Source of the DNA: Candidatus Omnitrophota bacterium
GTDB taxonomy: Bacteria > Omnitrophota > Gorgyraeia > Zapsychrales > JBDRMG01
Length of the DNA stretch: 43,770 nucleotides
Assembly (NCBI GenBank): GCA_043812495.1
Contig: JBDRMG010000047.1
Location: 1 to 43,770 of the forward strand
Direction: 5' to 3'
The position numbers are program-made. Shown piece after piece: positions 9,001 to 33,000 of this stretch. Each line of letters begins with the position of its first letter. Positions within the stretch are counted from its first letter, which is position 1.

Positions 9001-12000
9001 CACATATGCAAGAATACGTGTCTGAGCCGAGGCATGTGATAGGGCGGAAGCTCCATGACAAGGGGGGCCACTTCCTCTTTGAAGAGAGTGCGTTTGAAAA
9101 TCTGAGCAATAAGGATAGCCAAAATGATTCCCAAAAGGTATAAAGAAAAAACAATCAATCCTTCATGTCTTGGAAAAAGCGCGGCCGCAAAAAGCGTATA
9201 CACAGGAAGCCTGGCCGAACAGCTCATCAAAGGCAAAATAAGAATCGTGAGGATCCTGTCTTTCTCCGATTCGAGCGTGCGCGCAGCCATGATCGCCGGC
9301 ACAGTGCATCCAAAACCAAGAAGCATGGGGATAAATGATTTTCCGTGAAGGCCTAAAGCATGCATGATGTGATCCATGATAAAAGCCGCGCGCGCCAGAT
9401 ACCCTGTGTTTTCCAGAAAAGACATCCCCAAGAATAACAGCATGATGTAAGGTAAAAACCCTAAAACGCTGCCGACGCCTGCGATAATCCCGTCGGAGAC
9501 AAGAGAGCCGAGCCAGGCGGGCCCGCCCGCGTGCGCTATCCCCCACACGACCTTCTCGCCGGACCAGGCAAAAAAATTATTCAACAAATTGACTAGCGGC
9601 TCACCGATGGCAAAAACCAAAGAAAACAAAATAAACATAAACCCGAGAAAAATCGGGATACCCAGAAAACGGTTCGTTAAAACCTTGTCGATTTGGTCGG
9701 ATATGGTCAGACGCTCCTCGAAGGTCAAATGATGACGCGCGCACTCCTTGACGAGTCCTTTGAGATAAGCGAAGCGGCGCTCGGCTACAAATGTTTCTAT
9801 GTTTTCTCCATGCTCAAGCTCGATGTGACGGATAGCCTCCGGAACCTCCCGGTCCATCTTGCTATCTTCCAGTTTTTTGATCGCCCCTGGATCATTCTCG
9901 AGGATTCTGATGGCCAGGGCCCTCAAGCTATAACCAAGGTCAAGACCTTGTTGAGATAAGGATTGTTCTAGCGCTTGAATCCCCGGCTCTAATTCGGCAT
10001 AGTCCATATGCAGGACTTCTCCCGGACGGTCGAGATTCGCAAAAACAGCTTCTTTAAGCTCAGCAACTCCTTTTCCCTCGCAAGCAATGGTGGGGATGAC
10101 CGGAATTTTCAAGATCTTAGACAACCCATCCATATTAATTTCAAGACCGTGTTCTTTCACGCGGTCCATCATGTTCAGGGCTAAAACAACGTTTTCTCCC
10201 ATTTCAAGAAGCTGCGCAACAAGAAAAAGGTTGCGCTTCAGATTTGACGCATCGATAACGGCCACAATAAGATCCGGTCTTTCTTGAACGATAAAATCCT
10301 GGGCAATCTTTTCATCCAGAGAATAAGCATCCAGGCTGTAGGTGCCGGGCAAATCTACCAAAACCGCCTCTTTTTCCCGCAAAGACAAGCGGCCTTCTTT
10401 TCGCTCGACCGTTGTGCCGGGCCAATTGCCGATCCTTTCCTTGGCGCCGGTAAGGCAATTGAAAAGAGTTGTTTTTCCGGAATTGGGTGTTCCGGCTAAT
10501 CCGATTTTATTCAGCATTTATTTAAAAGTAAAAATAGGGAATTTTTGAAAAACTTTAAACGCAGATTCACGCAAATTGCACGCAGATTTACGCAGATTGT
10601 ATGATCTAATAAATTTTTAATCCGCGACCATCTGCGTTCGCTCATTTAAGGGACGTTGATGATTCTATGATAGTTTTGAATTGTGTAAGCTTCTAAATGT
10701 AATACTATCATCAACGTCCCTCACTGCTTATTGACTTCTTCTACAAATATCTTATAACTCATGCCGCGGCCCAAGGCAAAACGCAAATTTTCCTTGGCAA
10801 TGATTAAAGGACCTTGAGTATTTTGCATGACTTTGATGACTTCTCCTTTGATCAGTCCCATATTTTTCAGGCGTCTTGTGAGGCCTTGACCGGCATCGAT
10901 TTTCGCAATTTTTACGCGCAGACCTTCTTTGACCAGATTTAATGGTTCCATGATTGTTTCATCCTTTTGATTAACGAACCTTTTTATCCTTGCGATTTAC
11001 GGAAGCGTCGATGTTCTTGATAAACTCAAATAAACGCTGCGTTGTTTTTTCACTTAAGTGATGTTCGATTTTACAGGCATCTTCTTCGGCGACAGGCTCT
11101 TGGACTCCAAGAACCTGATGGAAAAATGTCTTGAGGACCACGTGCCGTTCGTAAAGCCTTTTAGCCGATGAAAGTCCTTTAGGGGTGAGTTTCACCAAGC
11201 CGTAAGGCTCATGCTCGATAAAACCGCTCTTTTTTAGCTTCGCAAGGGATTCAATGACCGAAGACGCCTTGACCTTTAAAAGCTGTGCCAAGTCCTTGAC
11301 GCGCACAACATCATTCTTTTGCTGGACGATCAAAACACCTTCCAGGGCATCCTCTAGCGAAGGAGACATATCGGTTATCATTTCGACCTCCAATCTTAGG
11401 TAATCCTAAGTATATTAGGTAAGCCTAACTTGTCAAGACAATTTTTGCATCGCGATACAAGAACGGAATCCATAAAATCTTGCGTTCTTCTTAATTTTAT
11501 TCTTGCAAAATGAAAAAAGATATGTATACTAATCTTTAATCAATTGTTCTAAATTTCACGATTCAATTATCAGACATATTGCAAAAGAAAAAGGCCTTAT
11601 TGACTTTCTCTTCATTAAAGGAACGGTGGAAGTCAATATTAGGTCTTCTTTCTCGTATAGAGAGAATATTATTGACTGTTCCATTAATAAGGAAAAGACC
11701 AATAAAAGGAGATTCTGTTTGACTATTTGTTTTCATCAGGTAAGATAATTTTGACTTCCTAAAATAACCTTAAGCATGTTTATCTCCGAAAATAATCTTC
11801 GAAAGCTTTTCGATAGACTTGGCCAAGACTATGATGTCTTTGTGCCTACGAAAAAAGGCGAACAACGCTTTTATAAGAAATACGCGGGATCTCTGGATGA
11901 CGTTGTTATCGGCGAGGTTAGGTCTTTTGAACCTCTCAAAGCTTTCTTTTCACGGGCGCGGGAGATTGTGGCTGAAGGTTTTCGAGATTCTGTTGTGGGA

Positions 12001-30000: not shown

Positions 30001-33000
30001 AAGAAATTACAAAATATCTGAAGGATGGGCAGGATTTTATCTCGGATCAGCGTATCCTGGAAACTCTCAAAGACAATAGCCGGCCGGATCCTCAAAAAGT
30101 CAAAGACATTTTAGCTAAATCTTTAGACATTCAAACCCTTCAGCTCGACGAGGCCGCTTGTCTTTTGAATGTCGCGGATCCTTTGCTGCTTGATGCAATG
30201 AAGCAAACAGCCCTGGCAATCAAGAAAAAAGTCTACGACAACAGGATCGTGACATTTGCACCGCTTTATTTGGGAAATTTTTGCGTCAACAACTGTCTTT
30301 ATTGTGGATTCAAAAAAGATAACACAGATGCCAAGCGTAAGGTGCTGAGCCAAGACGAAATTAAGGAAGAAATCAAAATGCTCGCCGGAAGAATCGGTCA
30401 TAAAAGACTGATTGTGGTTTACGGTGAACATCCCCGTAATGATGTCGATTATATCATCAAAAGTATTCGAACGATTTATGGTGTTGAAATCAAGACGAAA
30501 AACGGCACCGGAAATATCCGCCGGGTCAATGTCAATGCTCCGCCGTTTTGCGTCGAAGACCTTAAAAAATTACACGAAGTCGGCATCGGCACGTATCAGG
30601 TTTTCCAAGAAACCTATCATCATGACACCTACGCAAAAGTCCATCCGCAAGATACGATCAAAGGCCATTACCAGTGGCGTTTATATTGCATGCATCGGGC
30701 GTTTGAGGCGGGTATCGATGATGTCGGCATCGGCGCTCTATTTGGACTATATGATTGGAAGTTTGAAGTCATGGGACTTCTTTGTCATGCCCGCGAACTG
30801 GAAAATACATTCGGCATTGGTCCGCATACGGTGTCTTTTCCCCGGCTTGAACCGGCTGCCCATGCACCATTAACGGAAAACTCACGGTATCGCGTTTCGG
30901 ATGACGATTTCAAGAAACTCATTTTAGTTTTGCGCTTGTCCATTCCCTATACGGGCATGATTATCACGGCCAGGGAAAACGCCGAAATGCGACGGGAAGC
31001 TATTGAAATGGGTGTAACGCAGACGGATGCTTCGCCTAAAATCGGTATCGGATCCTACGCAAAAGGCCAAAGCGGTCAGGACAAAGATAAGCAACAGTTC
31101 ATACTCGGAGATACGCGCAGTCTTGATGAAGTGGTTCGAGAATACGCGAACATGGGTTACATCACATCTTTCTGCACCGCCGGATATCGATGCGGACGCA
31201 CGGGAAAATGCATCATGGATCTTTTGCGAAGCGGCCAAGAAGGTAAATTCTGCAAACTCAATGCCGTCTTGACATTCCGTGAATGGCTCAATGATTTTGC
31301 AAGTGATACAACAAAAGAAGTCGCCGAGCCTGTAATTCAAAAAGAAATCCAAGAAATCAAACTTAAGATGCCGAAAATCTTTCCCAAATTTGTTGCTACC
31401 TACGAGCGAATCAAAAACGGCGCTCGGGATCTCTACTTCTAAAAAATTTGTGATTAGTAGAAAATGTGTTTTTTTATTCGTTTGATTTCCCGCCCCGCTT
31501 CTTGCCCCGCAAAATGCGGGGCAGAGGGGCGGGTTAATTCGACCTTATGACTTATGTTCCGTCAATTCGATAAAATCGAATTGACGAGACCTCGCTAAAA
31601 TATTAAGAAAAAGGCGGGCGCTTCGCTCCATAAGTCATGGTCTCATTAAAAAGAAATAATTGACATCTGACGGGTTGAGGAGTATAAATTTGTTTTGAGG
31701 TTGAAAAACAAAGATAAGCCCCTGTCTGAAGCGAGGCAGGGGTTATTTGCTTATTAAGGACGGCGCCATGAATGTGTTATTGTTAATCGGCTTAACCATT
31801 TTCCTTGGGACATTGGGAGGAAAGATTTTCGAAAAACTGAAAATCCCCCAAGTCGTTGCCTATGTTGTTTTGGGTCTCATACTCGGGAAGTCATTCTTTG
31901 GCATTTGGGGAGATGAAGTGATCGAACAGTTTACGCCGGCCGTGAATCTGGCCCTGGGTTTTATCGGATTTTTGATCGGCTCGGAATTAAAACTCGACCT
32001 TTTTAAACGCAAAGGACACGCGATCTATTCCATCCTTTTCAGTGAGAGCCTGATGACATTTTTTGTTGTCATGGGGGCCGTGACGCTGGTAACGCATAAG
32101 TTCTATTATGGCCTGCTTTTCGGGGCCTTAGCCGCTGCGACCGCGCCGGCGGCCACGGTTGATGTCTTATGGGAGTATAAAACACGGGGGCCTTTGACCA
32201 CAACGCTTTTAGCGATTGTCGCTTTGGACGATGCCGTTGCCCTTATCCTTTATGCCTTTGCCAGCACCTTTTCCAAATCATTGATCGCTCGGGAACATTT
32301 TTCACTCTTTCACACGATTCAAGCTCCTCTAGTGGAAATCTGTTTAACCGCTGTATTGGGTGCGGCCGGCGGGTATATTCTTTTTAAGCTCATTCGCTTT
32401 ATCAAAGACAAAGAGCGCATCCTTCCCTTTACGCTGGGGATTATTACGATGGCCGTCGGCGCTGCCGTTCTCTTAAAAATCGATTTAATTCTCGTCAGCA
32501 TGATGTTGGGGCTGACCTTGGCCAATCTGGCTCCCGAAGAAAGCAAAGAAATCTTCAGCTCCGTTCGAAAATTCAGCCCGCCGGTTTATGTTCTCTTTTT
32601 TGTTCTGGTCGGGGCCAGGCTGGATATATTTTTATTTACCAAAGCCGCCATTGCCGTTTTGGCTGTCGTCTATGTCGTGAGCCGCTCTTTAGGAAAAATT
32701 TCCGGGGCTTTTTTCGGTGGCCTGATCGGCAAGGCTCAGCCAACCGTTACCAAATATCTCGGCCTTTGCCTGTTCTCCCAGGCTGGCGTCGCTATAGGAT
32801 TGGCGATTTCGCTTTATCACAACTTGGGACATCTTGGGCCCGAGGCGAGCCAAGTGGGCCTCACCGTCATCAACGTTATCGTGGCGACCACATTCCTTGT
32901 CCAGATCATCGGTCCGCCGAGTGTACGCTACGCTGTTTTTAAAGCCGGAGAAGCCTATAGGAATATTACCGAGGACGATATTATCGATTCTTATCGCGTC

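Follow-up and report, generated by a model that had tools for sequence, protein, structure and literature searches.

A group-4 [NiFe] hydrogenase operon and its putative maturation genes

The window, by which we mean the whole 43,770-nucleotide stretch of Omnitrophota DNA analyzed here, carries an intact group-4 [NiFe] hydrogenase operon that closes with hycI-hypA-[hypC::hydE], with hydG 3.7 kb further on (Table 1). We re-found the genes listed by a first-pass annotation of this DNA (the [NiFe]/Mrp cluster, HycI, a short HypA, a HypC-HydE fusion and HydG), as well as the large-subunit motifs RICGIC (at 64) and DPCYCC (at 353) and a C-terminal tail of 35 residues. The group-4 [NiFe] features present are two CxxC metal motifs, the ligand pocket, a tail with its endopeptidase and complex-I-like partners. 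Among solved structures, the large subunit best matches P. furiosus MbhL (6CFW, 5e-90), followed by E. coli HycE (3e-85); MBS (6U8Y) is a much weaker match (1e-47). Group-4 membership predicts a NiFe(CN)2CO site and H2 turnover. Large, small, NuoC/H/I-like and Mrp subunits are shared with the Mrp-containing group-4 Mbh of P. furiosus (MBH, PDB 6CFW; a 'group 4g Mbh + Mrp' is described in PMC9324843), but the window operon differs at both ends, having sulfhydrogenase beta/gamma-like subunits at its head and the fusion at its close. The short form of HypA also occurs in HypD-positive relatives, the 96-aa membrane protein is read as an accessory, possibly for nickel handling, and a Rex-like gene is found at 38 of 80 fusion loci from GTDB genomes.

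Table 1. Genes of the hydrogenase operon and its surroundings, in window coordinates.
Feature	Position	Strand	Evidence
Sulfhydrogenase beta / AsrA-like Fe-S subunit, operon head	11776..12831	+	Fer4_22; NF040829 168.8 bits, below cut-off
Sulfhydrogenase gamma / AsrB-like FAD/NAD(P) subunit	12821..13648	+	NAD_binding_1, FAD_binding_6, DHODB_Fe-S
Polyferredoxin-type subunit; later true start probable	13707..14351	+	Fer4_11
NuoH/MbhM-like membrane subunit; ORF caller start 14126	14351..15271	+	PF00146; 307-313 aa in relatives
Hydrogenase small subunit, NuoB/MbhJ-like	15268..15708	+	PF01058
NuoC/MbhK-like subunit	15705..16178	+	PF00329
Group-4 [NiFe] hydrogenase large subunit	16242..17423	+	Four metal cysteines, APRG and RAPT ligand-pocket motifs, cleavable tail
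Mrp-type antiporter module, 8 genes: MrpA/NuoL-like, MbhD/E, MrpB, C, D, E, F, G	17423..23335	+	Profile matches
NuoI/MbhN-like ferredoxin subunit	23460..24068	+	Fer4_7; NF009053
HycI-type maturation endopeptidase	24084..24560	+	PF01750; TIGR00072 100 bits, cut-off 47
Short HypA, 80 aa	24538..24780	+	N-terminal MHE motif present, CxxC zinc finger absent
HypC::HydE-like fusion, 433 aa	24928..26229	+	HypC domain ~1-75, radical-SAM barrel ~90-433
96-aa membrane protein	26315..26605	+	N-terminal MCY, conserved DH
Rex redox-sensing repressor	29324..29956	+	Profile match
HydG tyrosine lyase; ORF caller start 29904	29946..31442	+	TIGR03955; SAM cluster C113/117/120, His294, Cys410, Cys436 present

The only HypC in this genome (G000) is the one in the fusion. 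Profile searches of G000 returned 0 HypD candidates, no [FeFe] hydrogenase domain, and nothing above weak paralogue-level matches for HypE, HypF and HydF; tblastn of the genome gave no match at E<=1e-4 to HypD, HypE, short HypF or [FeFe] proteins taken from relatives. The earlier statements that HypD and [FeFe] hydrogenase are missing from G000 thus hold. The absence of HypF had been read from PF07503, which is a poor test because it is likewise missing from 3 of 4 HypD-positive relatives, whose HypF is a Kae1-only protein. A valid test is the C-terminal family PF22521, whose best match in G000 scored 38.5 bits versus 209-278 in HypD controls; with tblastn, this upholds the absence itself. HydF and HypE, likewise listed as missing, are indeed absent by profile search, whereas the reported lack of HypB is uninformative on the fusion, as 2 of 2 HypD-positive relatives lack HypB as well.

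Distribution of the fusion and of HypCDEF

We surveyed 151 genomes of the phylum, of which 54 have a [NiFe] large subunit and 97 do not. Among the 54, HypD alone occurs in 38, the fusion alone in 15, both in none and neither in one (G141). The 97 others, many with [FeFe] enzymes, include one with HypD and none with the fusion, so that HypD is present in 39 of 151 genomes overall and in 0 of the 15 with the fusion. HypE (TIGR02124) above cut-off and a full HypF C-terminal match were each found in 0/15 fusion genomes versus 10/10 HypD controls. Five of the 15 fusion genomes encode an [FeFe] hydrogenase; the remaining 10 (G000 and nine others) have neither this enzyme nor HydF. Among [FeFe]-negative genomes, HydG is present in 10/10 with the fusion versus 1/74 others. 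Fisher values for these associations overstate them, because all the genomes were binned from metagenomes and related ones are not independent data points. Two further exceptions are G131, with the fusion and no HydG found (89% complete), and G125, which has HypD and HydG but lacks an [FeFe] enzyme and gave no fusion, its group-4 operon being cut by a contig end. A second HydE lies next to the [FeFe] genes in genomes with both kinds of hydrogenase; G050, G085 and G089 have a separate, ordinary HydE with hydF-hydG. The first-pass annotation had called its exclusion statistics weak; the counts from the 54 [NiFe]-bearing genomes give far stronger support.

The two gene sets also replace one another within a single operon, which ends hycI-hypA-hypF-hypC-hypD-hypE in G140, G068 and G064 and hycI-hypA-fusion(-rex)-hydG in G115, G132, G142 and G147. 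In the window, the fusion takes the exact position of hypF-hypC-hypD-hypE of close relatives. In G147, HypC, HydE and HydG form a triple fusion in a single 915-aa frame, and further single frames of this kind occur in L180, P0002 and P0009. In the tree, large subunits from genomes with the fusion are intermixed with those from genomes with HypD (a single clade is rejected, p-AU 1e-6). Only four large-subunit columns tend towards the fusion group, and all lie outside the APRG and RAP[T/S] motifs.

These data bear on whether the bin is incomplete and simply lacks its hyp genes, with the fusion arising by chance read-through, as the state of G000 (90.5% complete, 66 contigs) might suggest and as the first-pass annotation had feared for the hyp genes. 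However, the hyp position is mid-contig and filled by the fusion, HypD, HypE and HypF are also missing from fusion genomes assembled into 2 to 20 contigs (G147, G132, G124, G040, G142), and the fusion is a family with 370 confirmed stretches in GTDB genomes. Such an artefact is largely refuted by these observations and hardly credible.

The family had been thought confined to Omnitrophota, but it occurs in several phyla. Within 8 kb of 80 GTDB fusion loci we found a [NiFe] large subunit at 62, HycI at 63, HydG at 38 and HypD, HypE or HypF at 0. We examined 50 genomes of these loci genome-wide: HypD occurs in 1/50 (G173 is exceptional in having both the fusion and hypD-hypE), HydG above cut-off in 23 of the 26 without [FeFe] hydrogenase, no HydG was found at E<=1e-60 in 4/50, and no large subunit was found in G187.

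Could the fusion and HydG instead serve [FeFe] maturation or another Fe-CO/CN cofactor, leaving the [NiFe] enzyme to unrecognized genes or as a relic? Besides the five genomes above, 24 of the 50 further fusion genomes have an [FeFe] hydrogenase, and 10/80 loci have an [FeFe] gene no more than 8 kb away. The window HydG groups with [FeFe]-locus HydGs from same-order genomes, and the fusion does not adjoin a hydrogenase in L218 and L226. Yet [NiFe] large subunits are encoded in the genomes of both L218 and L226, which lack HypD. Nor do large subunits, HycI and HypA show decay; all are intact. The 10 fusion genomes without [FeFe] enzyme and HydF, and the absence of the fusion from all 97 [NiFe]-negative genomes, also argue against this role, which we consider quite improbable.

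We conclude that the fusion and HydG very likely replace HypD, HypE and HypF in some form. The replacement of HypCDEF, proposed in the first-pass annotation, is now far more strongly supported, because exclusion with HypD is near-perfect among [NiFe]-bearing genomes, the fusion stands at the operon position of the hyp genes, HydG is retained without HydF or [FeFe] hydrogenase, a triple fusion exists, and genomes with both enzymes have a second HydE at the [FeFe] genes.

Conserved and altered residues of the fusion and HydG

The fusion gene is a single clean ORF, in which PF01455 (residues 1-64; 60 bits, cut-off 28.5) is followed by Radical_SAM and BATS. Its HypC/HupF OB-fold domain matches 2Z1C at 2e-13 and has a free N-terminal Cys2 in 85/85 fusions, like HypC of the HypC-HypD-HypE-HypF system (E. 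coli, T. kodakarensis; PDB 2Z1C, 2OT2), where Cys2 is the ligand carrying the unit (PMC11565642, PMC8692609). It is nonetheless a non-standard HypC, because the His of the VxVHxG strand, found in all four aligned PDB chains, is Gln in 84/85 fusions (Gln44 here). By analogy, the domain may bind the apo large subunit and carry Fe(CN)2CO.

The best sequence and fold match of the fusion is T. maritima HydE (TmHydE; PDB 3CIX, 7O1O, 8QMK), at 38% identity and an rmsd of 1.5-1.7 Å for most entries; the top ten structure matches are all TmHydE. It differs in scoring 239.1 bits against TIGR03956, under the 254.6 cut-off, in forming a clade apart from ordinary HydE (SH-aLRT 100), in its N-terminal HypC domain and in occurring without HydF or [FeFe] hydrogenase. 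We compared 85 fusions with 33 ordinary HydEs. The SAM-cluster CxxxCxxC at 153 (C153/157/160) is present in 85/85 fusions. Among the iron-binding (M224, M291) and hydrophobic (L157, V105) TmHydE residues named in PMC11826987, the equivalents M316, M384 and L249 occur in 85/85 and V196 in 80/85. The equivalents of TmHydE Y303 and Y306 (85/85) and of R159 are retained, and Q198 and R251 of the fusion are invariant (85/85). Of the cyanide-contacting TmHydE residues R54, T134, R155 and T269, only T269 is kept (84/85); the other three, present in 33/33 ordinary HydEs, are changed in 85/85 fusions (to His, Phe/Cys and Gly/Ala, respectively). New residues are Cys141, Cys142, Arg246 and Glu365, and a new Cys-x-His motif reads C141-C142-x-H144.

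The window HydG (TIGR03955, 466 bits, cut-off 312) resembles known HydG tyrosine lyases (PDB 4WCX, 4RTB), agrees with [FeFe]-locus HydGs in all tested motifs and differs only in context, with no HydF, ordinary HydE or [FeFe] hydrogenase. In the tree, fusion-locus HydGs interleave with [FeFe]-locus HydGs. The SAM-cluster cysteines C113/117/120, the dangler-iron ligand H294 and the C-terminal cluster cysteines C410 and C436 are found in 46/46 fusion-locus HydGs and 38/38 other copies, and the auxiliary-cluster variant CTAGYRC of the window copy is common to most [FeFe]-locus HydGs of the phylum. By sequence, fusion-associated HydG is ordinary HydG, and the window copy is predicted to make Fe(cysteine)(CO)2(CN) from tyrosine.

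The same replacement could work by other chemistry: the ligands would leave HydG as free CO and cyanide (or as complex B), while the HydE-like domain would act mainly as a scaffold in the role of HypD, radical cleavage being unneeded. HydG is able to release free CO and CN (PMC8855341), free ligands would permit any CO:CN ratio, and the new Cys/His ligands and three lost cyanide-contacting residues fit an altered job. However, a dead enzyme would hardly be expected to show invariant SAM-cluster cysteines, Q198, R251, and the two methionines and two tyrosines, and the His294 iron site of HydG is present in 46/46 fusion-locus copies. We regard this scaffold role as unlikely.

A proposed route to the [NiFe] iron centre

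We propose, at somewhat better than even confidence, that HydG supplies an Fe(CO)2(CN) unit, which the fusion reworks and Cys2 of HypC hands to the large subunit; we infer these reactions and binding events from observed gene content, synteny, residues and fold. HydG, in its known chemistry and with the required motifs intact here, would cleave tyrosine to yield Fe(II)(cysteine)(CO)2(CN) and a second, free cyanide. The HydE-like domain would take up the complex and, like HydE, remove the cysteine by radical chemistry, as its retained catalytic and methionine residues suggest. In the third and least certain step, two irons would not be joined for HydF; a single iron would sit in the remodelled pocket, bound by the new Cys142/His144 site and by Cys2 of the fusion's own HypC domain, much as HypD Cys41 and HypC Cys2 bind it, and the spare cyanide would replace one CO to give Fe(CN)2CO. 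By analogy with HypC/HybG, the HypC domain would then load the apo large subunit with the unit, with nickel coming from HypA and the tail being cut by HycI.

The HydG product has 2 CO to 1 CN, and the [NiFe] site needs 1 CO to 2 CN. We know of no enzyme for a CO-to-CN exchange of that kind. Also against the specific route, the HydE product is a fragile Fe(I) species and HypCD holds Fe(II), according to PMC11256358 and PMC11565642. If Fe(CO)2(CN) were delivered unchanged, hydrogenases with a non-standard NiFe(CO)2(CN) active site would result. This would equal HydG's known product and need no exchange, and the loss of cyanide-contacting residues does not suggest that a second cyanide is held in the pocket. 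Against it, either system can accompany large subunits that share 80-86% identity, with the same metal, APRG and RAP[T/S] motifs, and repeated swaps on an unchanged large subunit best fit one common cofactor; we think such a site improbable.

The findings point to a second, undescribed way of building the [NiFe] iron-carbonyl-cyanide centre. The system shares client enzymes, HypA, endopeptidase and operon place with HypCDEF, but lacks HypD, HypE and HypF, joins HypC to a radical-SAM barrel, and would draw its ligands from tyrosine rather than carbamoyl phosphate. It lacks the HydF and [FeFe] client of the HydEFG pathway in G000 and nine other fusion genomes. Its parts are known families; the system belongs to neither known pathway. 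It is likely, in our judgment, that a natural radical-SAM pathway of two proteins (or one triple fusion) makes the [NiFe] iron centre from tyrosine and has repeatedly taken over from HypCDEF in several phyla and hydrogenase groups; it may either carry out a new CO-for-cyanide exchange or give rise to enzymes with a never-seen NiFe(CO)2(CN) site.

The literature searched contained no description of such a route. HypCDEF is regarded as a well-conserved route (PMC9431212), and a review by HydG/HydE workers has the [NiFe] centre made without a radical SAM enzyme (PMC8855341). A second route, if real, would overturn that view, link two cofactor pathways considered unrelated, account for hydrogenases in bins apparently lacking maturases, and give heterologous [NiFe] hydrogenase production an iron-ligand cassette of one or two genes. 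The HydE variant in the fusion should then halt at the one-iron stage, providing a probe of the disputed dimerization step, and the natural HydE-HydG fusion would serve to study the hand-over of complex B.

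The hydrogenase operon and the HypC-HydE fusion

The window carries one hydrogenase operon, whose genes are listed in the table. Its large subunit has the motifs RICGIC at 64, APRG at 300, RAPT at 323 and DPCYCC at 353 and ends in a 35-residue tail. Among solved structures it comes closest to P. furiosus MbhL and E. coli HycE and is far more distant from MBS, and we therefore take it to be a true group-4 [NiFe] enzyme; an MBS-type nickel-free enzyme was rejected because all four cysteines are present. The combination of Mbh and Mrp in a related group is described, without maturation detail, in the available part of PMC9324843. 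The sulfhydrogenase-like subunits that open this Mrp operon, an arrangement conserved in relatives, suggest an NAD(P)H-linked ion-pumping complex.

As the first-pass annotation had reported, the operon is followed by HycI, a short HypA, a HypC-HydE fusion and HydG. The fusion is one 433-aa reading frame, with a HypC domain at residues 1-64 and a radical-SAM domain that scores nearest to HydE (239 bits, under the cut-off of 254.6); PylB (150 bits), BioB (111), ThiH (86) and HmdB (78) were rejected on these scores. HydG reaches 466 bits (cut-off 312). Complex prediction for the large subunit paired with residues 1-82 of the fusion, its HypC domain, scored 0.15 against a mark of 0.32, a value that speaks neither for nor against an interaction. 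Databases hold the fusion protein under automatic domain names only. A search of largely open-access full texts found no account of a HypC-HydE fusion or of HypD-independent maturation, and the available part of PMC9431212 does not mention the fusion.

Scanning with what we take to be the Rex-box consensus gave four matches at three mismatches (3.6 expected by chance), and a promoter scan stayed at chance level. The unannotated 96-aa membrane protein after the fusion was rejected as a core part of the module (found in 1/5 fusion, 0/5 HypD and 0/5 [NiFe]-negative genomes). It has an invariant N-terminal MCY and GxxDH, and its homologues (L251:1403-1690, L108:14282-14566, L285, L289, L291) adjoin hydrogenase operons or nikR (nikR in 2/10 metagenome loci); a role in nickel uptake or binding is possible. 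The short HypA form without CxxC accounts for 27 of the 30 HypA-like proteins matching our search pattern in compared loci. At one locus (L105:4194-6026) large subunit and HycI endopeptidase share a 610-aa frame directly before the fusion, and in another genome (G130) feoA-feoB lies immediately upstream of hydG and fusion.

Features of the window (nucleotide positions)
Feature	Position	Strand	Remarks
39-bp sequence	1-39; 11666-11704		identical copies, the latter just upstream of the operon; 30 matches genome-wide, most 97-100%
Short intergenic palindromes	3675; 13691; 29159; 39563
feoB and DtxR/MntR-type regulator	8523-11393	-	divergent from the operon
Inverted copy of ~95-bp repeat	10549-10643		between feoB and its regulator
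Hydrogenase operon	11776-24068	+	in order: sulfhydrogenase beta-like, gamma-like, polyferredoxin, NuoH-, NuoB-, NuoC-like, large subunit, eight Mrp-type genes, NuoI-like
Beta/gamma-like subunits	11776-13648	+
Large subunit	16242-17423	+
HycI			downstream of the NuoI-like gene
HypA	24538-24780		80 aa, after HycI; no zinc finger
~95-bp intergenic repeat	24795-24910		between hypA and fusion; 94% alike to the inverted copy; more copies on other contigs
HypC-HydE fusion	24928-26229	+
96-aa membrane protein	26315-26605		first of five genes between fusion and HydG
LsrF-like aldolase, zinc dehydrogenase, unknown protein, Rex			the other four, in this order
205-aa protein	28441-29058		signal-peptide-like start; no Pfam/NCBIfam match
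HydG	29946-31442
HipB-like antitoxin and HipA N-terminal domain	42486-43023		pair

Distribution of the fusion and of HypD

The only HypC of this genome (90.5% complete) is the fused one. No HypD and no [FeFe] H-domain were found in it, HypF, HypE and HydF gave only weak paralogue-level matches, and tblastn with relatives' proteins agreed with these absences. The first-pass annotation had also cited the absence of HypB and, by its zinc finger, of HypF. Neither carries weight: 3/4 HypD-positive relatives also lack the zinc finger, because their HypF is a Kae1-only form of 353-387 aa, and HypB is missing from 2/2. Such half-length HypFs (L111:8592-9653, L112:8474-9559, L113:7783-8859, L114:11810-12913, L116:10971-12134) had no zinc-finger part in 3/3 genomes tested, and their gene content would point to a minimal Hyp pathway.

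To count these genes we used one set of 151 genomes of the phylum, each at least 85% complete. The fusion occurred in 15 of them, from 11 families, among the best 150 matches listed (those of G054 and G130 were confirmed as single shorter ORFs), HypD in 39, an [FeFe] hydrogenase in 67 and a [NiFe] large subunit in 54 (52 by PF00374 at E<=1e-12; G034 and G143, below its reach, were added from protein search). The 54 [NiFe] genomes divided into 38 with HypD only, 15 with the fusion only, none with both and one with neither, counting fusions among the matches listed; in this last genome (G141) the large-subunit gene lies at a contig end. Among the 97 genomes without a large subunit, HypD was found once and the fusion, among the matches listed, never; that fusion and HydG serve some other purpose is very unlikely. 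HypE and HypF were each found in 0/15 fusion genomes versus 10/10 HypD controls. HydG (E<1e-100) was present in 10/10 [FeFe]-negative genomes with the fusion versus 1/74 of the others (84 in all), and HydF in 0/10 [FeFe]-negative and 4/5 [FeFe]-positive fusion genomes; three genomes (G050, G085, G089) have a second, ordinary HydE adjoining hydF and hydG. Fisher values of ~1e-12 for these associations overstate them, because related genomes do not count as independent samples. Both types occur within five of the families. Separately, G125 has a HydG amid signalling genes (L115:5993-7489) and no HydE, HydF or [FeFe] enzyme was found in that genome; possibly a break between contigs has cost it a fusion.

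To look past the phylum we scanned GTDB, where 370 stretches of the fusion family were confirmed; the best 80 of them were used for locus analysis. By bin labels, which can be wrong, these comprise 43 Omnitrophota, 6 Spirochaetota, 6 Planctomycetota, 3 Margulisbacteria, single loci from Atribacterota, Myxococcota, Falkowbacteria, Elusimicrobiota and Auribacterota, and 17 without a phylum. Within 8 kb of the fusion, a neighbourhood often shortened by contig ends, these 80 showed a large subunit in 62, HycI in 63, HydG in 38, [FeFe] hydrogenase in 10 and HypD, HypE or HypF in none. Fifty of the 80 genomes (all 37 not labelled Omnitrophota and 13 so labelled; genomes shared with the set of 151 were kept in both), of unstated completeness, were searched whole: HypD was found in 1/50, [FeFe] hydrogenase in 24/50 and HydG over cut-off in 44/50, including 23/26 without [FeFe]. 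The single genome with HypD, G173, combines hypD-hypE and a group-1-like enzyme with a fusion that lies beside a 3b enzyme. A large subunit sought elsewhere in 15 genomes was found in 13 by PF00374 and in G188, where bases of the gene are withheld and PF00374 (E<=1e-12) did not detect it, by protein search; in G187 neither method found one.

Probable replacement in place

In three relatives (G140, G068, G064) the operon ends nuoI-hycI-hypA-hypF-hypC-hypD-hypE; in four others (G115, G132, G142, G147) the same operon ends nuoI-hycI-hypA-fusion-(rex)-hydG. An assembly or binning artefact is hardly conceivable. In G147, HypC, HydE and HydG form one 915-aa frame; such triple fusions (881-921 aa; L103:11651-14398, L180:8001-10766, P0002, P0009) fall in at least two separate tree branches.

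We then compared 27 orthologous large subunits (>60% identity), 19 from HypD and 8 from fusion genomes; G125 is doubtful among the 19, since its operon runs off the end of a contig and the hyp genes it has lie beside another hydrogenase. Fusion- and HypD-served sequences were interleaved in their tree, forcing at least three changes, and a single fusion-served clade was rejected (p-AU 1e-6, G125 left out). All 27 have their metal and pocket motifs in common, and no fusion-specific pocket was seen (a 3b pocket pattern, outside this result, matched only three sequences). These motifs make it quite unlikely that Fe(CO)2(CN) is delivered as it is to give a variant active site, an alternative that would avoid a CO-for-cyanide swap, for which we know of no precedent. 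Group-3b-like operons (G122, G124, G054, G121, G040) and, in G050, one of another group-4 type likewise precede the fusion; in G089 it faces a further hydrogenase type.

The first-pass reading, that HydG and the fusion replace HypCDEF, is thus supported by the near-complete mutual exclusion of HypD and fusion, by their shared operon position and by the retention of HydG without HydF or [FeFe] hydrogenase. By membership tests the module lies outside both known pathways, HypCDEF and HydEFG, and is most likely a HypDEF substitute made of HydG and a rewired HydE.

Residues of the fusion and a proposed route

An AlphaFold2 model of the fusion (86 sequences; pLDDT 93.9, pTM 0.92) had T. maritima HydE as all ten top fold matches. 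According to the available part of PMC11826987, M224 and M291 of HydE bind iron, L157 and V105 form a hydrophobic pocket, and R54, T134, R155 and T269 contact cyanides of the two-iron product; mapped by sequence alignment with a ten-residue offset, all eight matched. M316, M384, L249, R251, Y396 and Y399 are invariant in 85/85 fusions, T362 is present in 84/85 and V196 in 80/85. The fusions have His144, Phe/Cys/Leu/Ile226 and Gly/Ala247 where 33/33 ordinary HydEs (L204 and L221, themselves fusions, left out) carry Arg, Thr and Arg, and they gain Cys141, Cys142 and Arg246 (85/85) and Glu365 (83/85); across the family at large, both Cys142 and His144 stay invariant and Cys141 varies. These exchanges would fit a scaffold-only role of the HydE-like domain, which the invariant methionines, tyrosines and R251 nonetheless render unlikely. 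The domain forms one clade separate from [FeFe]-locus HydEs (SH-aLRT 100 in a quick tree built from 77 subsampled rows, with four rows lacking a recognised HypC start inside the clade). Cys2 of the HypC domain is kept in 85/85 fusions and its histidine is replaced by Gln in 84/85; the available part of PMC4161419 does not mention this histidine.

HydG has ordinary motifs, and in a tree of 49 subsampled rows, some of them duplicates, its copies from fusion loci alternate with those from [FeFe] loci (six changes or more); neither motifs nor tree revealed a fusion-specific HydG type. The specialised part is therefore the fusion, HydG having, to judge by its sequence, been taken over unmodified.

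According to the available parts of the sources cited, HydG builds Fe(II)(Cys)(CO)2(CN), a second cyanide releasing the product (PMC8855341), and HydE splits off the cysteine, keeping an Fe(CO)2(CN)S species bound at M224 (PMC11256358, PMC11826987). Fe(CN)2CO is held by HypC Cys2 and HypD Cys41, and it reaches the large subunit on HypC/HybG alone (both PMC11565642, PMC10847431, PMC8692609, in part). For the substitute of HydG and rewired HydE we infer every chemical step: the fusion would take up the HydG product, stop at the one-iron stage, hold the iron on Cys142/His144 and Cys2, exchange one CO for the spare cyanide and then deliver the unit. Direct HydG-to-HydE transfer is reportedly the title of one paper.

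In two genomes (G007, G091; L235-L238) hydF-hydG-hydE adjoins hypF-hypC(-hypD-hypE), with [NiFe] and [FeFe] hydrogenases in one cluster. Such clusters show a way in which hyd and hyp genes could have met, though their order differs from that of the fusion.
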